Shown piece by piece: positions 626 through 18,744 of a DNA stretch of 18,744 bases. A model generated the notes under the pieces. It was given only the letters and a program-made list of their open reading frames with translations, was not told the origin of the DNA and searched no databases. The translations under genes and the position numbers were made by a program. Position 1 is the stretch's first letter. Every line of letters starts with the position of its first letter. Source of the DNA: Bdellovibrionota bacterium (lineage in GTDB: Bacteria > Bdellovibrionota_C > UBA2361 > CALJRW01); assembly GCA_041740355.1 (NCBI GenBank), contig JBGSMD010000040.1:1-18744 (forward strand). Reading direction: 5' to 3'.

Positions 626-750
626 CTCGGCTTTTAAATAAATATAAACAGATACCTGCCTTTTATCTCTTTAATCGTAGTTTTATTTTGAAAGTTGCTT
701 AATCTCTCAAATATTTTTTATCTCCCTTTTATAATTTAACTTCAAATGCC

Positions 751-887
751 CCTTCTTTAGTTCTTAATAGTTCCAAAGTGCTACCCTTCGTCAAGGTCGG
801 GGCCCGCACCCCGCTTTGCTCCCACCGTGTTCCTTAATTGACTAAGGGCTCCCCGACACTTTGGTTTTTATCTTTCACTAAAGAAGG
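751..887 (+). other. Structured intergenic element, copy 1 (long imperfect hairpin enclosing two conserved boxes)
   Basis: Nested inverted repeats 751-761/877-887, 773-780/857-864 and 784-794/838-848 (one mismatch). They enclose box A GGGGCCCGCACCCCG (799-813) and box B CTCCCACCGTGTT (819-831), both repeated exactly at 18549-18563 and 18628-18640. Function inferred only. Confidence 0.75.
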
Positions 888-920: not shown

Positions 921-1304
921 ATGATTACTAAGAAAATTTACGCACAACTTAAACAAATAATTCCTAGCTTTGATAAAGATTACTACAAGCTAAAAAGTGC
1001 AGGCTTTATGGATTTAAATATTGATGTACTAGAGCGAGATGAAAACTTTCTAACTATTGCACTTAGTCATTACTACTTACATGAGTCAGGGGATCTAATT
1101 CCTGACCCTGATATGGAAGTCAGAATTAACCTTACTGACGAAACTGCCTTTGCAACTAGCTTCCAAGATTTATATAATTACACAAGTATTTATGAAGCGA
1201 ACCAAGTCATTAATGTTAAAAAAGCTACTGACCTAAATAGCTTCTTACTTTACTGGCTTAACAACATTAAGGAACAAGGACATCGTATTTTCACCAATAA
1301 ATAA
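921..1304 (+). CDS. DUF1249/DUF6908-like hypothetical protein
   Basis: GGAG RBS at 912-915. Motifs GFMDLxID, LSHYY...GDLIPDPDMEVRI and C-terminal LNSFLxxWLxNIKEQGH match my recollection of DUF1249 (YqiB-like)/DUF6908 proteins. Confidence 0.75.
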   Translation: MITKKIYAQLKQIIPSFDKDYYKLKSAGFMDLNIDVLERDENFLTIALSHYYLHESGDLIPDPDMEVRINLTDETAFATSFQDLYNYTSIYEANQVINVKKATDLNSFLLYWLNNIKEQGHRIFTNK

Positions 1305-3253: not shown

Positions 3254-4285
3254 TCAATTTTCTGCGGTTAGATCTTTGTTTATATTCGTCGCAGGATAAA
3301 GCGGATCTAGTTTATTAGCATAATCATGTGCCCAAGAAAGCCACTCAGCAAATTCATCCTTATCCTTAACAACATTTTCAAAACTCACTAAATATTCCCT
3401 AATAGCTTTTACTTTTTGAAACTTAAGTACATTGCTCTCTAAGGCCTTAATCCTATTCTCCTCTTCTTCTCTTTTTTGACGCGCAAGCTCTGAGCGTGCC
3501 TCGCTTTCAGCATACTCTATTGTCCGTAATCTCCTAGCCTCGGCAAGTTCTTCTAAATTAACAATAAAATCAGATAAGCAATTTTCAACTCTTTGCTTCG
3601 CACCATCTTTCCAAATCTGGCGATATGGGCGATACGCACTAAAGCATGTTAGTTGTAGCTTCCCAGTTGGAACATAAATTCGCTCATTATAATATTTATT
3701 CTGCTTGTATTCGGTTCTATCTAACTCTTGAAGTCCAAATCGTAATTTTTCACCTTTAAAAAATGAAAAAGTATTTTCCCTCTCCCTGTCATCAATTTTT
3801 ATAACATGCCCCCTAGCCTCTAAGGCAGTTATTAGAGTACTCATAATTTTTAATGCCCTGACCCTAACTTTTTTACTTACTCTGATATCTAAATGAGGAA
3901 GTTCAGCTAAAGGCTTTTTCCTTTCATTATAAGGTTTATCATCCTCTAGGAAATATTCTTTTGTTTGCTCAATAAGGGGATGGACTTTTGACTTACGGGT
4001 TGTTGGAATAATGTTAACGTCATTTGACTTAATGTACTCAGTTTTTGTTTTAGCATCATCTAAAATAATTACTTCCAGATAGCTACTTACTTCTGGAAGT
4101 TCTGGACGGACAAACTTTTCTCGGTTCTTGCTTGCCCAGAAACCAATTGGAGGAGTTGGAATTTCACGACTTTTACAAAGTTTTCCAAGACTATTACCAG
4201 ATAAGGGATATTTCTTTGCTAACTCTACTAAAGAATGTTCCCATACTTCCCTATAAAGTTGTTCCCTAGTAATCTTTAGAGACAT
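3254..4285 (-). CDS. Conserved hypothetical protein with N-terminal HTH-like domain
   Basis: ITREQLYREVW...LAKKY.LS...LGKLC...IPTPPIGFWA and C-terminal WLSWAHDYANKLDPL, a pattern I recognise from mobile-element hypothetical proteins. ATG at 4285 preferred over the track's TTG at 4306. Confidence 0.7.
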   Translation of the reverse strand: MSLKITREQLYREVWEHSLVELAKKYPLSGNSLGKLCKSREIPTPPIGFWASKNREKFVRPELPEVSSYLEVIILDDAKTKTEYIKSNDVNIIPTTRKSKVHPLIEQTKEYFLEDDKPYNERKKPLAELPHLDIRVSKKVRVRALKIMSTLITALEARGHVIKIDDRERENTFSFFKGEKLRFGLQELDRTEYKQNKYYNERIYVPTGKLQLTCFSAYRPYRQIWKDGAKQRVENCLSDFIVNLEELAEARRLRTIEYAESEARSELARQKREEEENRIKALESNVLKFQKVKAIREYLVSFENVVKDKDEFAEWLSWAHDYANKLDPLYPATNINKDLTAEN

Positions 4286-9810: not shown

Positions 9811-11052
9811 TAACTCTCGATGGTTGAAGCTCGATACTTTTTAACCATCGTGGGTTAGTTTTGTAATGCTCTTTACTCTCGATGGTTGGTAGTTGATATT
9901 TTATTAACCATCGAGGGTCTGGTGTAATTACTTTGAAAGCCTGTTATTTTTCGTATTTCAAGTAAGCCTACTAAGATTTTACCATCGATGGTAGAGGTTG
10001 ATAGGATTACTAACCATCGATGGTCTAAATATGACTTCTTGAAAAAAATTGCTGAAATTAGCAAGAATGTCCTGTCGGCTTGATCAAAATAACGTCTAAT
10101 TTAATCCTGAGGGACAAGTTTTTAAAAATTTGGTCAAACCCCTAGCTATACCCAAAACTCTTAAAATTAGATCAAATTCTGGCTCTGAAATAAACTGATT
10201 TTTGCAGATTGAATCTTCTAACCATCGATGGTTAATTTATATACTCAAGTTTGTGGCAGAAACATCGAGGGTCCGTTGTGGCTACTCACGGAGATAAGAG
10301 GTTTGCTCATCTCAAAGATTAGCTGACCATCGAGGGTTAAGTGAGTGCGGTGTTATAAGTTAGAAGGTAGGAATTCTTGATTATGGATACCGTCTAACCA
10401 TCGATGGTAATAGTTGCGCAGAATGGCTACCATCGAGAGTTGAGAATAAAAAATGGTGAAATTTATAATTGATAATCTGAAGTTTAAGGGAGAAAAGCTA
10501 ACAATGATAAATATCCATGTTTTAACTATCGAGGGTTGGATTTGACCATCGAGGGTAGAGAGGGAGCACCATGTAGTGATGTACGATAAATAAAATCTCG
10601 ACTTTAGCATATCTTAAAGATAATTAAGGAAAATGATTAAATTACTAACAACTATATTTTCAGTTCTGTTTATTACAAATTTAGCCTTCGCTATTAATCC
10701 ATGTAATTGCAAGGGGGATGATGGAATAGGAGGACCTTGTTACAAGGGAATAGGCGGTGGTGCATACGATGGCATTGGAGGACCCGCATACGCAGGTATC
10801 GGTGGTCCGTGTTACACAGGAATTGGGGGAGATGCTTACGACGGTATTGGTGGCCCAAGATATAAAGGAATTGGAGGGGACGCTTATGATGGTATCGGAG
10901 GTCCAGCCAACGATGGGATTGGTGGTCCGTGTTACGCAGGAATAGGAGGACCTTGCTATGATGGCATTGGCTCAGATCCAAAAGATTGTCCTAGTGTTTG
11001 TGATTAGGAGCTTCGGCCCTCGATGGTTAGAAGCATTAACCATCGACGGTTA
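9811..11052. repeat. Array of 15 palindromic 16-mers, consensus TAACCATCGA(T/G)GGTTA; putative centromere (parS/parC) and par operator
   Basis: Copies start at 9811, 9842, 9873, 9905, 9979, 10011, 10219 (perfect palindrome), 10259, 10324, 10395, 10427, 10523, 10543, 11014 and 11037. The array begins 89 bp upstream of the parA start. Confidence 0.85.
10633..11007 (+). CDS. Secreted Gly/Cys-rich octapeptide-repeat protein
   Basis: AAGGA RBS, Sec-type signal peptide ending AFA (residue 20), 11 tandem GIGGxx(Y)x units (10723-10986) and 8 Cys. Repeat codons differ at synonymous sites, supporting this reading frame. Confidence 0.85.
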   Translation: MIKLLTTIFSVLFITNLAFAINPCNCKGDDGIGGPCYKGIGGGAYDGIGGPAYAGIGGPCYTGIGGDAYDGIGGPRYKGIGGDAYDGIGGPANDGIGGPCYAGIGGPCYDGIGSDPKDCPSVCD

Positions 11053-11258
11053 GTTTTAAAAGACATCATCTTTATTGAGCAGATTTAGCAAAACATAACA
11101 GAGCTCTTATGAGCAAGTTGTAAGATGATAATTGCGACATTAATCTTTATTGCATATAGTTTAATTTATTAAACTAATTGAACAATGAGTACATAACAGA
11201 GGCCCACTAGGCTTTTGCAGTCTTCACAGAAAGGCTTCAATTAAATTTTATCTAGAAT

Positions 11259-14200
11259 ATGGCTAATGACTTTACTTTTATTACTAATGAAGATGGGTAT
11301 ACTTTAAAAGACCGTTTTGCCACTTTAATTAAAGAAACTCAGTTTTTTGATGTACTAGTTGGATATTTTTATACAAGTGGCTTCTATGCGATGTATCCAT
11401 CCCTAGAGCCAACTGAGAAGATAAGAATATTAATTGGCATTAGTACCAATAGCCAGACTTATGACTTGATACAAAAAGTTAAATCTCATAAGGAAGTTGG
11501 GGAGGAATTTAGTGCTACTGTTCAGCAAGAAATGGAGTCTAGCGAGAATAATCAAACTGTAGAAGCTGGTGTAAAGAAATTTATACAATGGCTTGAAAAT
11601 GGCAAACTAGAAATTCGCGCCTACCCTGAAGAAAAGATACATTCTAAATTATACGTGATGACTTTTAAAGAAGATCATGTCGATGATGGTAGAGTTATTA
11701 CTGGATCTAGTAACTTTTCTCAAAGTGGTCTAGTCGATAATCTTGAGTTTAATGTAGAGCTAAAATCTTCTAATGATTACCATTTTGCAAGAAATAAGTT
11801 TGAGGAACTTTGGAGTAAAGGAGTCGATGTAAGTGATAAGTATGTAGAAACAATAAGAGAACATACTTGGTTAAAAGAAGATATAACACCTTATGAGCTA
11901 TATCTTAAATTTCTCTACGAATACTTTAAAGAAGAAATAAATGAAGAAGAAGAGCTGGAACACAGCCATCGACCAGATAATTTTAAAGAATTAAAATATC
12001 AAGACCACGCCGTTATAAATGCCAAAAAAATTGTGGAAGAATACGGTGGAGTCTTTTTGTCAGATGTAGTTGGACTTGGAAAAACCTTCATGGGAACTAT
12101 GCTATGTGAAGAGTTGTCAGGCAGGACTCTTGTGTTGGCACCACCTCATTTAATTGATGAAAAAAATGAAGGTAGCTGGGAAAATGCATTTAAAAATTTT
12201 GGATTTCGTTCAAAGGATTACAAATGCGAATCAATTGGAATGCTGGAAAAGATAATTAAAAAAGAATTATATAAAAATTTTGAGATAATACTTATCGATG
12301 AATCACATAGATTTAGGACGGAAGAAACAAAAATTTATGCTGATCTTGCTCAAATTTGTAGAGGTAAGAAAGTAATTCTTGTAACTGCTACACCATACAA
12401 TAACTCACCGAAAGATCTACTAGCTCAAATTAAACTTTTTCAGCGTATAAAGAATAGCACCATACCAAATCTTCCGAATGTTGAAGGATTTTTCAAAAAG
12501 CTTGAAAGAAATTTAAAAGGATTAGATAGAAAGAGAGATAAAATAGAATATTTAGAGGTAACAAAAGCAAATTCCAAACTTATTAGAGAAAAAGTTCTCA
12601 AATATTTAATGGTGAGAAGAACTCGAAAGGAAATTCAGAAGTATTATGGCGAAGACTTAAAAAGACAAAATATGAGGTTTCCAGATATTGCCGATCCAAA
12701 ACCTGTTTATTATGAATTTAATAAAAAAGAAGATCGAGTATTTTTTAAAACTATCGAAATAATATCAAATGATTTTAAATATGCACGTTATACGCCTCTT
12801 CTATATCATATAGGCGAACTCGGCTCAGAGGAACAACGACAAAAAAACATGAGGAAATTCATGAAGATGTTGCTTATTAAGCGTTTAGAAAGCAGTTTCT
12901 TTGCATTTAATCAATCAATCAATCGTTTTATAGATTCTTATGAAAAATTTATCGCTGAATATGAGACAGGAAGCGTTTACGTCAGTAAAAAACATATAAA
13001 GAAAGTATTTGATTATTTAGAAAGTGGAAATATTGATGCCGTCGATCAATTGATATCTGAAGAAAAAGCAGAGAGATTCTCTACTAAAGAGTTTAAGAAT
13101 GATTTTATAAAAGATTTAAAAAAAGACTTAGATACTTTAATTAGAATTAAAGACTTGTGGAAAGATATTGACAGAGATCCTAAGATCATTGCGTTTAAAG
13201 AGAAACTAGCGATGGAGGAGCCATTAAAAGCTGGTAAATCAATAATATTTACAGAATCAAAAGAAACAGCTGAATATCTTTTTAAGAATTTACAAGATAC
13301 TTTCCAAGATCAAATCATCTATTTCTCTGGCGGGAGCTCACTGATGGAGAGAGAGGTTGTTATGGATAATTTTGATGCAAATTCAAAACAAATAAAAAAC
13401 GATTATAAAATTTTAATTACTACAGATGTATTAGCTGAAGGAGCAAACTTACATCAGGCGAATGTTGTCATAAATTATGATATACCATGGAATCCAACAC
13501 GAATCATGCAAAGGGTTGGTCGTATTAATCGTGTAGATACAAAACATGACAAAATATATACCTATACATTCTTTCCTACGGAACAATCTAATGAGCAAAT
13601 TAAATTAAAAGAGCTTGCCGAAGCAAAAATACAGGCATTTATTACGCTACTTGGCACAGATGCAAAATTACTAACAGAGGGAGAGGTCCCAGAAGGACAT
13701 AGCTTATTCAAACAAATTTTATCAAAAGAAATGATTGAGGGTGAGGACAATGCAGATGATAGTGAACTGAGGTATTTGCAGGAGATTAGGGAAATAAGAG
13801 ATAAGAATCCAGCCTTATTTGAAAAAATTAAAAAATTACCTAAAAAATCACGGACAGCAAGAAAATCCCAAGAAGAAAGTTCGGAGCTGTTAACATACTT
13901 TAGAAAAGGAAAGCTACAAAAATTCTTCATAGTTCAATCGGATACGCATTCTATCTCGTCAGAAATAGATTTTATAGAAGCTGCGAAAAAGCTAACAGCA
14001 AAGCAAACTGAAAAGAAGATAGGGCTAAACAAGCAGTTTTATGAGATGTTGGAAAGAAACTTAGAAATGCTAAGAAACGTAGATGAACATGATAAGGATG
14101 AGTATTTTTCGAAAAGAGGCAGCGGAGATAATGCTGCACGACTTTCCAAAATTTTAAATGCCAAAGAGATTAAGAAATATCAAGGTTTTACCGACGAGGA

Positions 14201-14444
14201 TGAAGTTTATATCAAACAAGTTATAGATGAACTTGACTCAGGTGGAATACCCAAAAAGATAACACAAAAGTTGTATAAAAAAATACAAGAAACTCCTGAT
14301 ATAATTAAAAATCCAATAAAACTTTTGGAAATTTTAAAATCGACTCTTCCGATCGATTTTCTTCAGCCAACACTAAACGATATAAACAAAGGAATAAATA
14401 CCAAGCAGGAGATTATTCTTTCTGAATATTTCAATGCTGAATAG
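11259..14444 (+). CDS. PLD-family nuclease fused to SNF2/SF2 helicase (restriction-associated)
   Basis: N-terminal VGYF, HSKLY...TGSSNFS (single PLD/Nuc-type motif). Helicase motifs DVVGLGKT, IDESHRFR, TATPYNN, KRLESS, TDVLAEGANL, NYDIPWNP and QRVGRINR. Confidence 0.92.
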   Translation: MANDFTFITNEDGYTLKDRFATLIKETQFFDVLVGYFYTSGFYAMYPSLEPTEKIRILIGISTNSQTYDLIQKVKSHKEVGEEFSATVQQEMESSENNQTVEAGVKKFIQWLENGKLEIRAYPEEKIHSKLYVMTFKEDHVDDGRVITGSSNFSQSGLVDNLEFNVELKSSNDYHFARNKFEELWSKGVDVSDKYVETIREHTWLKEDITPYELYLKFLYEYFKEEINEEEELEHSHRPDNFKELKYQDHAVINAKKIVEEYGGVFLSDVVGLGKTFMGTMLCEELSGRTLVLAPPHLIDEKNEGSWENAFKNFGFRSKDYKCESIGMLEKIIKKELYKNFEIILIDESHRFRTEETKIYADLAQICRGKKVILVTATPYNNSPKDLLAQIKLFQRIKNSTIPNLPNVEGFFKKLERNLKGLDRKRDKIEYLEVTKANSKLIREKVLKYLMVRRTRKEIQKYYGEDLKRQNMRFPDIADPKPVYYEFNKKEDRVFFKTIEIISNDFKYARYTPLLYHIGELGSEEQRQKNMRKFMKMLLIKRLESSFFAFNQSINRFIDSYEKFIAEYETGSVYVSKKHIKKVFDYLESGNIDAVDQLISEEKAERFSTKEFKNDFIKDLKKDLDTLIRIKDLWKDIDRDPKIIAFKEKLAMEEPLKAGKSIIFTESKETAEYLFKNLQDTFQDQIIYFSGGSSLMEREVVMDNFDANSKQIKNDYKILITTDVLAEGANLHQANVVINYDIPWNPTRIMQRVGRINRVDTKHDKIYTYTFFPTEQSNEQIKLKELAEAKIQAFITLLGTDAKLLTEGEVPEGHSLFKQILSKEMIEGEDNADDSELRYLQEIREIRDKNPALFEKIKKLPKKSRTARKSQEESSELLTYFRKGKLQKFFIVQSDTHSISSEIDFIEAAKKLTAKQTEKKIGLNKQFYEMLERNLEMLRNVDEHDKDEYFSKRGSGDNAARLSKILNAKEIKKYQGFTDEDEVYIKQVIDELDSGGIPKKITQKLYKKIQETPDIIKNPIKLLEILKSTLPIDFLQPTLNDINKGINTKQEIILSEYFNAE

Positions 14445-14446
14445 TT

Positions 14447-17400
14447 ATGAATAAAAACGAAGCAAAGGAAATAATTAACTTAACCTTCAGTAATGATTTT
14501 GATGAGGAAAGATATCAAAAGTTTGTATCTAATCTTTTTAAGCACTACAAGCTTGTTAATAGAATAACAACTGGTAGTTTTATAAAACAGTCTTTTATAC
14601 CTTTTGTTACTGAATATAAAGTACTTGGGAGTTTTGAAGATAGCGAAAGCAATACAATAGACATTCTTGAAGTAAGTTTACGTAAAACATCAACTTTAGA
14701 ACAAGCTAGATTAGCACAAAGAAATTTTATTGCAGAGTATCTTAAGTCAAGAAGCAAAGATGCTGCTCTAGTCGCCTTTATTTCACCAGATAGCACGGAT
14801 TGGCGACTATCCTTTGTAAAATTAGAACATTCTCTAGAAGTTATAGATGAAAAATTAAAAACCAAAGAGGAAATAACTCCAGCGAAGAGATGGTCTTTTT
14901 TAGTCGGGAAAAACGAGGGAAGTCATACTGCGCAAAGTAGATTTGTTAATCTACTTATGAGTAATCAAGAGCCTAATCTTGCTGAAATTGAGTCTGCTTT
15001 TGATATTGAAACTGTAACTAAGGAGTTTTTTAATAAATATGTAGATCTGTTTTTTCGCCTTAAAGAAAATTTAGATTCTTTATTAGAAAAAGATGAGATA
15101 ATAAAAAGAGATTTTGAAGCAAAAGAGATTTCTACTGTTGATTTTGCAAAAAAGACATTAGGACAGATTATTTTTTTATATTTCTTACAGAAGAAGGGAT
15201 GGTTTGGGGTAGCGCCTGATCAAAAATGGGGGGATGGCCCAAAGAAATTTTTGAGAGAACTGTTTGAAAGAAGAAGAAAATATGGAAACAATTTTTTTAA
15301 CAATATATTAGAGCCATTATTTTATGAAGCTCTTGCTCAAGACAGAGGTTCAGAGTCAATTTATCCACGGTTAAACAATTGCAGGATGCCTTTTCTTAAT
15401 GGAGGGCTTTTTGAGCCAATGAATGGTTATCTATGGGAAACTACAGATATAATTATTCCAGATGAACTTTTCTCTAATAACAATAGAACAAAAGAAGGGG
15501 ATCTCGGGGATGGTATATTAGATGTATTTGATAGGTACAATTTTACTGTAAATGAGAATGAACCTCTTGAGAAAGAGGTGGCGGTGGATCCTGAAATGCT
15601 TGGAAAAGTATTTGAAAACCTTTTAGATATAAAAGATCGTAAGAGTAAGGGAGCTTTTTATACACCACGTGAGATTGTGCACTATATGTGCCAAGAAAGT
15701 TTAATTAACTATCTAGATACAGAAACAAAGAATGAAATATCGCGCGAGGATCTGGAGCTATTTATAAAAAAAGGAGATCGGATCATTGAAAACGATAAAA
15801 TTGGTTTGGATAGAAAAGAAGAGAGGATAAATAAATACGGTAGTGATAAGTATAAGGATTCAACGTACGTACTTCTTTTACCAGAAACAGTAAGAGTAAG
15901 AGCTGATAAACTTGATAGTCTCTTAAAAAATATAAAGGTTGCAGATCCCGCAGTTGGCTCTGGCGCATTTCCCTTGGGCATGATTAATGAGATTGTGCGT
16001 GCAAGGAAAGTCTTGAATGTTTATATCCAAAATAATACTTCAGATTACGAACTTAAAAAACATACGATTACAAACTCAATTTATGGTGTTGATATTGATC
16101 AAGGAGCAGTAGACATTGCGAAACTCCGTCTTTGGCTAGCATTAATTGTAGATGAAGAGACACCACATCCTTTACCAAACCTAGATCATAAAATAATGCA
16201 GGGAAATAGCTTAATTTCTGAATATGAAGGAATTAAGTTATTTGATGATTCGATTCTTGAGGGATCTCAACAACAAGAAAGAGAAAAACTAAAAGCGACT
16301 ATGAATAGAAAATTGTCGTTGCTTCAGAAAGAATATTTTGATCTTCTTTCTGAAAAGAAATTAACAGTATTTAAAAAAACAGAGATTGAAAAAGAAATTA
16401 AATCTTTAAAGAAAAGACTTGAGGACACAAGTCAAAAAAAAGAAATACAAAATACGAATATTGGATTATTTGATATTCCTAATAAAAAATACATGTTAAC
16501 AAAAAAAGCAGAGCTTCTTCAAGGAAAGATTGAAGAATTTATTAATGAATCTCAAAGGAGTAAGAAGCAAAGTCTAAGAGAAGATATCGATAATTTAAAA
16601 TGGGAGCTTATTGAAGCAACGTTAAAAGAGCAAGGAAAGGAAAATAAACTTGATGAGATTCAACAGTTTCGGCGAAAAAATATTAAACCTTTCTTTATTT
16701 GGAAATTAGAATTTAGTGATGTTTTTCGCGAAAAAGGAGGATTTGATATTATCATTGCTAATCCTCCATATGTTGGAGAGAGCGGAAATAAAGAAATATT
16801 TCGTCCAATTGCAAAGGGCAATTTAAGAAAGTTCTATCAAGGGAAGATGGATCTTTTTTATTTTTTCTTTCATCTTGCCTTAGACCTTGGGCATCGCAAA
16901 GCAAAATGTGCATTTATCACAACTAACTACTTCTTAACTGCCTTTGGCGCAAGAAAGTTAAGAAAGGATCTGCAAGAAAGGGCTACTATTTATGATTTAA
17001 TTAATTTTAATGAATTAAAAATATTTGAATCTGCTCTTGGGCAACACAATATAATTACTATTTTTAGTAAAGAGAAAAATTTAGAACGACAAGCCAATAC
17101 AACTCTGACAAAGAATAAAGGAGTCGCAATAGAAAAAGTGCTGGCAGATATAGTTGAAAGGCGTGATACAAACACCGAGTATAATTTTGTATCGCAAGAT
17201 AATTTGTATGACGGAGTGGAGTCGTACATAAGGCTACAAGGAAATAGCAATCAAAAAGATCCTATACATATAATTTTAAACAAAATTCAAAATGCAGGTG
17301 ATTTGCTTTCATCATTTTGTAATATAAATCAAGGTGTTGTCAGTGGTTGTGATTATATAACAAAAAAACATTTTAAAAATATAAATGCTGATGCGGACAT

Positions 17401-18154
17401 CAAATTAAATGATGGTATTTTTGTATTCAATTTAGATAACCATAGAGATCGAGAAGCTGTAGCATCATTCAATGAGATAGAAAGAAGATTATTACGCCCA
17501 TTTTATAAGAATTCTGATATATATCGATTTTATTCTTCTTCCAAGCATACGAAACTTCTTTTGTACCATAATTGCAATTTAGAAACATCTCCTTATCAAA
17601 ACATCTTCAAATATATATTTAAATTTTCAGATATTTTGAAGCTAAGATTGATAAATTATAAGGAAAACTACCATTGGACTAAGTTGCACAGAACCCGAGA
17701 AGAAAGTATTTTTATTGGGAATAAGATAGTTGTTCCATATAGATGTAAAATAAATACATTTGCTATGAATAGTCTAGAGTGGTTTTGTCGATCTGATTGT
17801 TATGTAATTACAGAAAAAAATAACGAATGTGACTTAAGATATATATTAGCTCTACTTAATTCATCACTATATTTTCAATGGCTGTACCATCGGGGGAAAC
17901 GCAAAGGAGAGATCTTAGAACTTTTTCAGACACCATTATCCGAAATTCCTATCAAAAAAATTACTCATCATGCGCAAAAGCCCTTTATAGACTTTGTTGA
18001 ACAAATTTTTGATGAGACTTCCAAAGACGATTACGATCCTAATAAACCTTCAATTAAACAACAAGAATTAGAAAATGAAATTGATAAATTGGTTATGGAC
18101 CTATATGAGTTAACTGATGAAGAAAAAGATATTATTAGAAGAGCCTGTAAATAA
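14447..18154 (+). CDS. Type IIG/Eco57I-like N6-adenine DNA methyltransferase with TaqI_C-like target-recognition domain
   Basis: PFLNGGLF, VDPEMLGKVFENLL, GAFYTPREIV, motif I DPAVGSGAF, YGVDID, motif IV IANPPYV (gamma order), and C-terminal YILALLNS...IPI..IDKLVMDLYELT. Starts 2 nt after the helicase stop. Confidence 0.93.
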   Translation: MNKNEAKEIINLTFSNDFDEERYQKFVSNLFKHYKLVNRITTGSFIKQSFIPFVTEYKVLGSFEDSESNTIDILEVSLRKTSTLEQARLAQRNFIAEYLKSRSKDAALVAFISPDSTDWRLSFVKLEHSLEVIDEKLKTKEEITPAKRWSFLVGKNEGSHTAQSRFVNLLMSNQEPNLAEIESAFDIETVTKEFFNKYVDLFFRLKENLDSLLEKDEIIKRDFEAKEISTVDFAKKTLGQIIFLYFLQKKGWFGVAPDQKWGDGPKKFLRELFERRRKYGNNFFNNILEPLFYEALAQDRGSESIYPRLNNCRMPFLNGGLFEPMNGYLWETTDIIIPDELFSNNNRTKEGDLGDGILDVFDRYNFTVNENEPLEKEVAVDPEMLGKVFENLLDIKDRKSKGAFYTPREIVHYMCQESLINYLDTETKNEISREDLELFIKKGDRIIENDKIGLDRKEERINKYGSDKYKDSTYVLLLPETVRVRADKLDSLLKNIKVADPAVGSGAFPLGMINEIVRARKVLNVYIQNNTSDYELKKHTITNSIYGVDIDQGAVDIAKLRLWLALIVDEETPHPLPNLDHKIMQGNSLISEYEGIKLFDDSILEGSQQQEREKLKATMNRKLSLLQKEYFDLLSEKKLTVFKKTEIEKEIKSLKKRLEDTSQKKEIQNTNIGLFDIPNKKYMLTKKAELLQGKIEEFINESQRSKKQSLREDIDNLKWELIEATLKEQGKENKLDEIQQFRRKNIKPFFIWKLEFSDVFREKGGFDIIIANPPYVGESGNKEIFRPIAKGNLRKFYQGKMDLFYFFFHLALDLGHRKAKCAFITTNYFLTAFGARKLRKDLQERATIYDLINFNELKIFESALGQHNIITIFSKEKNLERQANTTLTKNKGVAIEKVLADIVERRDTNTEYNFVSQDNLYDGVESYIRLQGNSNQKDPIHIILNKIQNAGDLLSSFCNINQGVVSGCDYITKKHFKNINADADIKLNDGIFVFNLDNHRDREAVASFNEIERRLLRPFYKNSDIYRFYSSSKHTKLLLYHNCNLETSPYQNIFKYIFKFSDILKLRLINYKENYHWTKLHRTREESIFIGNKIVVPYRCKINTFAMNSLEWFCRSDCYVITEKNNECDLRYILALLNSSLYFQWLYHRGKRKGEILELFQTPLSEIPIKKITHHAQKPFIDFVEQIFDETSKDDYDPNKPSIKQQELENEIDKLVMDLYELTDEEKDIIRRACK

Positions 18155-18520
18155 TTTTGTGTAAGTGAAGTCCTACTAGCCTATTGTTCTCTTCTAGACT
18201 TTTAAATATTGCTTCTCGTAGTCTTGATTTAGTAAATATTTTCCAAATATATTATCTTTATAAAATTAAAACTAAGAACCTAATCCTAAGTTGTTTCAGT
18301 ATTAACTTTTAGATTCCACTCAATCATTAAAACTAAATTTTCCAAGCACCCTTTTAGTCTTATTTTACAGGCAAATCAGAGCCTAATCCTAATTTTTCTT
18401 TGTTGTAAATTTCATATTTCAATTGCCTGTTTATTCTAGTCTCGGTTATTTCTCCTAATTCTTCCAATCCTATTTTTTGAAATTCCATCTTTAAATTTAT
18501 TTTCGTGATTTTCATTCTTT

Positions 18521-18668
18521 AGCAGCTAGTTTTTTTAGAAAGTAAATAGGGGCCCGCACCCCGTTAAAATATTTTTCTTTTAAAACAAGTTTTAATTTTC
18601 CTTCGAAAAACCACAAAAATATTTTAACTCCCACCGTGTTACCTTTTTACTTTCCAAAACTAGTTGCT
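18521..18668 (+). other. Structured intergenic element, copy 2
   Basis: Outer imperfect stem 18521-18550/18642-18668 (possibly extending to about 18506/18682), box A 18549-18563, a perfect 14-bp inner inverted repeat 18563-18576/18615-18628, and box B 18628-18640. Confidence 0.75.
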
Positions 18669-18733
18669 TTTTAAAGAAATCAATCTCTTAAAAAATTAAG
18701 AGGGAATTTTAATTAAAAAACAGGAGAAATATC

Positions 18734-18744
18734 ATGGAAACAAA
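18734..18744 (+). CDS. Start of an unknown gene, truncated by the window edge
   Basis: AGGAG RBS at 18722-18726 followed by ATG GAA ACA; only three full codons are visible. Confidence 0.5.

Follow-up and report, generated by a model that had tools for sequence, protein, structure and literature searches.

Two hairpin elements with identical boxes on a conjugative plasmid from Bdellovibrionota: candidate single-strand promoters or priming signals in the leading region

The window, i.e. the whole stretch of 18,744 nt that was analysed, corresponds to one entire contig (C40) of its own genome (G000) and belongs to a conjugative plasmid of the MOBF/VirB type. Its proteins include TrbC/VirB2 and VirB3, encoded divergently from the first of the two hairpin elements described below (copy 1), a DUF6908 protein encoded after this copy, RepA, ParA, a PLD-SNF2 helicase and an Eco57I-like methyltransferase. 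The start of the contig overlaps contig C33, which carries the VirB operon onward, and its end shares an 86-nt overlap with the starts of contigs C1 and C14, two versions of one region with about 95-97% similarity. The joins C40-C1 and C40-C14 are ambiguous in the assembly.

The gene located directly downstream of copy 1 (921..1304, + strand; RBS GGAG at 912-915) encodes the DUF6908/DUF1249 protein (PF21849, E = 2e-19). This domain was found in 1 of the 124 genomes of the phylum, the window's own, and gave two distant matches in PLSDB. The gene downstream of the second element (copy 2) starts at the extreme end of the window (18734..18744, + strand; RBS AGGAG at 18722-18726), runs on into C1/C14 (C1 76-306) and encodes a protein of 76 aa. 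On C1/C14 it is directly followed by an ardA gene (PF07275, E = 5.5e-35), then by four more same-strand genes, a 111-aa accessory gene and the genes for a TrwC-type relaxase and a coupling protein. Profile searches in Pfam, NCBIfam, PHROGs and PDB assigned the 76-aa protein to no family; it displays invariant W, N and D residues, and homologues occur in 8 of the 124 genomes of the phylum as well as on planctomycete and Ruegeria plasmids. As a guess, it could be a small ssDNA-binding protein. At eight homologous loci outside this plasmid lineage, the upstream regions lacked the boxes described below.

Between the partition region and copy 2, genes for a glycine-rich protein, the PLD-SNF2 helicase and the Eco57I-like methyltransferase occupy 10633..18154 (+ strand) and form, together with six genes of C1, an unbroken run of nine non-overlapping + strand ORFs. 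The 124-aa product of the first of them (10633-11007, +) has a signal-like N-terminus, followed by some ten glycine-rich repeats of the GIGGP(A/C)Y(D/K/T) type, and gave no Pfam match. The helicase and the methyltransferase, the latter Eco57I/MmeI-like with a TaqI_C domain, constitute a two-gene block (11259-18154, +) among the genes templated by the transferred strand (T-strand), and may represent a restriction or anti-restriction module in the leading region. No other hairpins were found before leading-region operons; the segment from parA to the helicase gene (10230-11262) contains instead a CCCTCGATGGT-like repeat in eight or more copies, partly arranged as inverted pairs, which are probably iterons or a partition site.

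Both elements share two short boxes. Box 1 (GGGGCCCGCACCCCG) occupies positions 799-813 and 18549-18563, and box 2 (CTCCCACCGTGTT) at 819-831 and 18628-18640, always on the + strand. As claimed in an earlier note made from the letters alone, the matches are exact in both places, and each box occurs exactly twice in the 18,744-nt window; two matches for either box were obtained in 0 of 200 dinucleotide shuffles, with 2-3 mismatches permitted. Copy 1 has both boxes in the apical loop of the hairpin, with 5 nt between them. In copy 2 they are separated by a 64-nt inserted branched hairpin (18564..18627) with a perfect 13-bp closing stem, so that the two boxes become neighbours only in a folded single strand. 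On the transferred (-) strand, box 1 was predicted to form in both copies the GGGG/CCCC mini-hairpin already proposed for it (pair probability 0.5-0.73, the higher value being that of copy 1), and box 2 to be mostly unpaired. Neither box sequence was found in a literature search. A resemblance of box 1 to 16S rRNA, considered as possible mimicry, was dropped, as the host's own 16S deviates in that stretch.

Copy 1 (751..887) is a long imperfect hairpin, as seen from DNA folds and arm alignment, in which an outer stem of 11 bp (751-761 pairing with 877-887) gives way to an internal loop, followed by a middle stem of 8 bp (773-780 pairing with 857-864) and an inner stem. Copy 2 is likewise a long imperfect hairpin, whose boxes occupy an internal loop or a junction; its core covers 18521-18668 and its outer pairing reaches approximately 18506-18690, beyond the limits first drawn at 18521-18668. 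Predicted DNA folds were more stable than those of all 200 shuffles in each case, with z-scores of -3.7 (+ strand) and -3.9 (- strand) for copy 1, and of -6.0 (+ strand) and -6.7 (- strand) for copy 2. For copies 1 and 2 alike, the - strand folded better than the + strand by 3-4 kcal/mol. When the 59.5 kb of plasmid contigs were scanned with a sliding fold of 160 nt, copy 2 and its twin on contig C45 (see below) occupied ranks 1 and 2 of 1471 windows, and copy 1 rank 8, by a window cutting through the hairpin. Counting G-T versus A-C mismatches was uninformative as a strand indicator: the outer stem of copy 2 contains one of each and that of copy 1 none.

Copies 1 and 2 have arms of unrelated sequence. 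The local alignment score observed between the left arms was reached by 202 of 500 shuffles, and that between the right arms by 40 of 500; both regions nevertheless fold into long hairpins, which bears out the observation that the flanks are unrelated from copy to copy yet complementary within each of them. The two copies also have the same orientation and a comparable position: the hairpin of copy 1 ends at 887, 33 nt before the ATG at 921 (GGAG at 912-915), and the core of copy 2 ends at 18668, 65 nt before the ATG at 18734 (AGGAG at 18722-18726), in agreement with the spacing of 33-65 nt before an RBS-led ATG given earlier.

A search of both boxes across the replicon and related contigs, as had been recommended, yielded a third copy on contig C45 of the same genome (minus strand, 105-196), with three differences from copy 2 across 18506-18690, and a single copy 2 orthologue in a genome of the same genus (G002), where it precedes the same 76-aa gene and ardA. 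Among the genomes of the family, order and phylum (3, 91 and 124, respectively), the box 1-box 2 pattern, with up to 2-3 mismatches permitted, was present only in G000 (three copies) and G002 (one copy); searches with up to three mismatches in the 91 genomes of the order and in the class, which here equals the phylum (124 genomes), gave no match beyond these two. Exact trimmed cores retrieved three stretches from GTDB species representatives, namely G002 and two chance matches in GC-rich DNA, and ten stretches from JGI metagenomes, all of them GC-rich and apparently coding (53-74% G+C). A distant blastn search of PLSDB with both regions returned no match. The whole window contained no Rfam family at E <= 1, and the two small regions gave only noise at E <= 10, the best scores being 9-23 bits against gathering scores of 39-140. 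A covariance model (R1), built from the four sequences and poor in information with two of them independent, was scanned over the 124 genomes; it was significant for the four known copies only, and the eight weak matches inspected among the 18 listed were all devoid of boxes.

The notion of a structure conserved without sequence rests on two independent copies, too few for covariation statistics. A lack of further homologues with compensatory stem changes had been named beforehand as evidence against the interpretation, and none was found. Since this plasmid lineage is sparsely sampled, the lack of homologues was not counted against a function. Arms, insert and boxes have no further copy in the 3.27-Mb genome and no transposase was found among the neighbouring genes; a MITE or an IS end, which the earlier note had named beside Rfam families, was excluded on these two grounds. 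Judged from such comparisons, the element falls outside the Frpo sequence family, any Rfam family and any MITE or IS family. It could also be the functionless remnant of some small segment that was duplicated or mobile, or else an operator working as double strand, that happens to lie in palindromic AT-rich spacers. The confinement of the element to one plasmid lineage would suit a relic, but neither the lack of other arms, insert or boxes in the 3.27-Mb genome, nor the shared orientation and position of both copies before RBS-led genes, nor arms that are unrelated yet self-complementary in each copy is expected of one, and spacings of 5 and 64 bp between the boxes do not fit a double-strand operator. 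These explanations are considered very improbable, all the more so as arms and boxes are conserved above the neighbouring genes.

This conservation was apparent within the copy 2 family, which comprises copy 2, its twin on C45 and the orthologue in G002. Arms, boxes and spacer showed 0-1 changes in 165 nt, and the insert 2-4 changes in 64 nt, which makes it the least conserved part of the hairpin. The corresponding numbers were 4-7 changes in the 231-nt segment of the 76-aa gene and 31-42 in the ardA region of about 590 nt. A conservation of arms and boxes above that of the gene and ardA segments was counted in favour of a folded single strand. No RNA run was listed among the sequencing runs containing the stretch. 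Contigs from another study's run covered positions 1-1284 at about 94.5% identity. Among contigs of other metagenome runs, one record stops at 18573, just past box 1, and in some the agreement with the reference ends within the insert, at 18604, where a different sequence takes over; variant forms of copy 2 may exist in nature.

Sense-oriented hexamers resembling sigma-70 promoters lie just upstream of both hairpins. Upstream of copy 1, TTGAAA-16/18-AATATT/TATTTT (688..717, + strand) is a candidate promoter with 9 of 12 matches, and two such sites were found in this region, where shuffles would lead one to expect 0.8. Copy 2 is closely preceded by TTGAAA-15-TATTTT at 18477..18503 (+ strand). 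The homology between C40 and C45 starts at 18473, so the shared module opens 4 nt before the -35 box of this second pair, which suits an ordinary promoter. A sigma-70-like promoter upstream of each hairpin keeps alive the alternative of a structured 5' leader RNA of about 200 nt, made from ordinary double-strand promoters, in which the hairpin would serve for attenuation or termination, for stability or for the gating of translation, with the boxes as a binding site for a regulator. The two hairpin regions do have stable RNA folds (z = -3.9 and -4.7), in which pairing takes place between the 5' flank and the region of the RBS or start codon, and TTTCTTTTTT follows the outer stem of copy 1 as a T-run like that of an RNA terminator. 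In addition, a natural variant in the insert, 18600 C>T, turns a C-G pair into T-G, a change tolerated on the + strand only.

Several observations are at odds with such a leader. Hexamer matches are common in DNA of 33% G+C, with 0.8-2.7 expected per region, and the -35 box is disrupted in G002, where the hairpin remains intact. A terminator scan of the + strand of both regions found none, and no Rfam family was matched. Moreover, the better fold is in both copies that of the - strand, and the position in the leading region, together with the template logic of the T-strand set out below, would be a mere coincidence if the hairpins worked as RNA. A leader RNA, the main rival reading, is on balance doubtful, but it has to be taken seriously.

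The orientation of the elements relative to transfer was assessed from the putative origin of transfer. The minus strand of C1 contains at 3590-3625 an F-like nic core (TGCGTTGGGTGTGG), and the sequence located on this strand 140 nt upstream of the 111-aa accessory gene (GGTGCGTTGGGTGTGGGAG) can be compared with the F nic region on the strand opposite traM (TTTGCGTGGGGTGTGGTGC): the C1 core agrees with the F stretch TGCGTGGGGTGTGG at 13 of 14 consecutive positions. For F, TraI is described as remaining joined to GGT after cleavage, the cut falling after GGGGTGT (PMC3074121). In both F and this plasmid, the nic core is opposite to, and upstream of, the relaxase/tra genes, and in the F record the genes ssb, psiB and ygeA, which head towards oriT, are on the traM/traJ strand. 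With the nic core on the - strand, as in F, the - strand would be the T-strand and the template of every + strand gene. By this analogy with F, on which the nic position is based, the - strand of the window would enter the recipient with C1:3602 first.

The first 11.7 kb or so behind the putative nic site are occupied by the nine non-overlapping ORFs mentioned above, all on the + strand. If C40 joins C1, copy 2 is about 3.6 kb and copy 1 about 21.4 kb from nic. Copy 2 precedes the 76-aa gene and ardA, and copy 1, which as seen from nic lies beyond rep and par genes of opposite orientation, a remote place that counts against the single-strand reading, precedes the lone + strand DUF6908 gene. 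Mapping the copies against oriT and the transferred strand, another proposal of the earlier note, thus places the putative T-strand as template of both downstream genes. A second version of the nic core is present on C14 (9327-9342); there, conservation does not extend to the adjoining inverted repeat and the relaxase gene is broken up into two ORFs, and this version of the nic/relaxase region looks as if it were decaying. The same oriT core, with 1-2 mismatches, was also encountered on long chromosomal contigs of both genomes (G000:C64 near 100251 and G002:C55 near 5148), adjoining a small gene of accessory type and a pair of AbiE-like genes, with an integrase-like gene nearby in G002. These two loci, which have no box hairpins, are probably integrated mobilisable elements borrowing the relaxase of the plasmid.

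The boxes bear some similarity to the nic core. Read on the T-strand, there is GGGTGCGGG in box 1 as compared with GGGTGTGGG in the nic core, and box 2 has GTGGGAG in common with the bases just across the putative cut. Outside the elements, GGGTGCG (from box 1) occurs once and GTGGGAG (from box 2) twice in the 59.5 kb of plasmid contigs, and a pair of these, one of each word, falls on the same strand within 14 nt at the nic core; the 3.27-Mb genome has 12 occurrences of the pattern GGGTGYGGG, of which 4 belong to plasmid contigs. With the boxes predicted to be displayed at the tip, unpaired or as a mini-hairpin, these data could be accounted for by a single-strand or cruciform docking site for a DNA-processing plasmid protein, e.g. 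the relaxase piloting the T-strand or the accessory protein, rather than by a promoter. However, the similarity was noticed post hoc, three of the four plasmid matches are copies of the same element, and the two shared words stand in reverse order with respect to oriT. The F-like recognition stretch TGCGT.GGGTGT before GG is absent at the boxes, box 1 sharing only GGGTG.GGG, with no preceding TGCGT, and box 2 only GTGGGAG; the bases 5' of the would-be cut likewise fail to resemble the stretch of a TraI site, with 2 of 8 positions for box 2. The chromosomal elements with the same oriT core have no boxes. On balance, a docking site that is not a promoter appears improbable.

The reading tentatively preferred here, at somewhat less than an even chance, is that the elements represent a new class, in terms of sequence, of Frpo-like single-strand promoter or priming signal in the plasmid's leading region. 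A T-strand that is template for the downstream genes, the ardA context and the fact that these hairpins rank among the most stable of the plasmid fit an action as single-stranded DNA well. The earlier note had proposed a functional ssDNA element or a cis-regulatory RNA. The first part gained from the plasmid nature of the contig, the ardA gene, the strand and the fold stability, and lost from the number of independent copies (two) and from weak promoter hexamers; the sigma-70-like sites upstream of both hairpins leave the RNA part in place beside it. The likeness to Frpo and ssi elements is meant as an analogy in function and no homology is claimed.

According to this single-strand reading, as the T-strand (the - strand of the window) enters the recipient, each region would snap into its long imperfect hairpin, and the double-stranded stem would allow the host RNA polymerase to start an RNA on the T-strand, directed towards the adjacent gene. 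The outcome would be an immediate and transient expression of the 76-aa protein and ArdA from copy 2, and of the DUF6908 protein from copy 1. The hairpin would probably also provide complementary-strand synthesis with a primer or a pause. Once the DNA becomes double-stranded, the hairpin would be lost and the signal switched off. We infer that the boxes, which at the tip or junction would present a GGGG/CCCC mini-hairpin beside a 13-nt unpaired G-rich stretch, may serve as a fast-folding nucleation clamp or as a docking site for a protein.

Promoter hexamers in the stems are weak. In copy 1, the -35-like TTGACT (838-843) reported in the earlier note is present, and the partner arm of the hairpin reads TTGACG-16-(TG)-AACTAT, in which the -10 matches 3 of 6 positions; the double-strand version of that arm has no -10. 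In copy 2, no -35/-10 pair was found on either arm at the thresholds used. The host may have another promoter consensus. It is also conceivable, with a low probability, that the boxes are read by a specific factor, perhaps the incoming relaxase in view of the likeness of box 1 to the plasmid's nic core, which would recruit RNA polymerase or primase and make the elements factor-dependent single-strand promoters. Promoter identity would then reside in the loop, so that the stems would be free to vary and the -35/-10 hexamers could be poor.

In the literature surveyed, experimentally characterised single-strand promoters come only from enterobacterial IncF and IncI plasmids. The present element is a candidate from a Bdellovibrionota-like host, i.e. 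from a little-sampled phylum, and bears on how anti-restriction genes are switched on before a complementary strand exists in plasmids of other phyla. Its variable stems and identical tip boxes, split by an insert in one copy, make for a cleaner separation of structure and recognition sequence than is seen in Frpo. With a length of 137 nt, copy 1 offers a compact test object for what a single-strand promoter needs besides stem hexamers, although its value is limited by a family of two independent copies and by an uncultured host.

Among known systems, integron attC sites act as folded single strands, combining conserved boxes with a middle part that varies. Their boxes are at the base of the hairpin, beside an integrase, whereas those described here are at the tip with no integrase nearby. 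The CUP repeats of the IncN plasmid pKM101 are repeated conserved upstream elements before leading-region genes, each corresponding to several hundred bp of a conserved double-strand promoter/operator. STAXI and similar Rfam motifs are structured, lie near ssb or anti-restriction genes and have been proposed to act as ssDNA; neither STAXI nor the other Rfam motifs gave a covariance match above noise to the window or its two regions. At ssoA, a single-strand origin of rolling-circle plasmids, RNA polymerase reportedly makes the primer, as is said to follow from work by Kramer et al. in 1997/1998. Origins of this type carry RSB and CS-6 boxes in hairpins (PMC4598088) and thus resemble the present elements in having two short conserved boxes in a hairpin that is otherwise variable, orientation-specific and functional in single-stranded DNA only. 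They differ by their box sequences and by the mode of replication, the plasmid studied here having a RepA initiator (PF10134) and not a rolling-circle one, and the elements found here are situated right before genes.

The Frpo1 and Frpo2 elements of F and ssi1-3 of ColIb-P9/pESBL (class 1) are closer. They too are long imperfect hairpins of the transferred strand in the leading region, directly before RBS-led early genes with the T-strand as template, and more than one is present per plasmid (PMC9849209, PMC12672017). In F, Frpo2 and Frpo1 (upstream of ssb and ygeA, respectively) are imperfect T-strand hairpins of about 300 nt that end about 45 nt before the gene, compared with 33 and 65 nt here, and the + strand run of genes described above mirrors ssb, psiB and ygeA on the traM strand of F. 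The elements studied here are about half as long and far less stable (-26 and -33 kcal/mol versus -89 and -93 for Frpo), and the -35/-10 hexamers known from Frpo are weak or absent. In a blastn comparison with 12.5 kb of the F leading region including both Frpo, the best match had an E value of 0.39 and consisted of 12-nt AT-rich words. Frpo1 and Frpo2 are given as 92% identical over the whole region (PMC9849209), in contrast with the present copies, where two tip boxes are common and the arms unrelated.

The pESBL report of 2025 describes large hairpins before all six early operons of that plasmid, belonging to three sequence classes, one of which is upstream of ardA, with starts confirmed by 5' RACE (PMC12672017). 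According to a 2026 preprint, such a promoter also blocks complementary-strand synthesis. The present elements agree with this picture in their place, orientation and strand and in their rank among the structures of the plasmid. The existence of sequence-unrelated classes on pESBL implies that new sequence classes of single-strand promoter do exist. Classes 2 and 3 of pESBL and F, located before ardA, klcA and M.EcoGIX, are alike in being sequence-unrelated hairpins, detected by folding the leading region with no recourse to homology; their hosts are Enterobacteria (PMC12672017).
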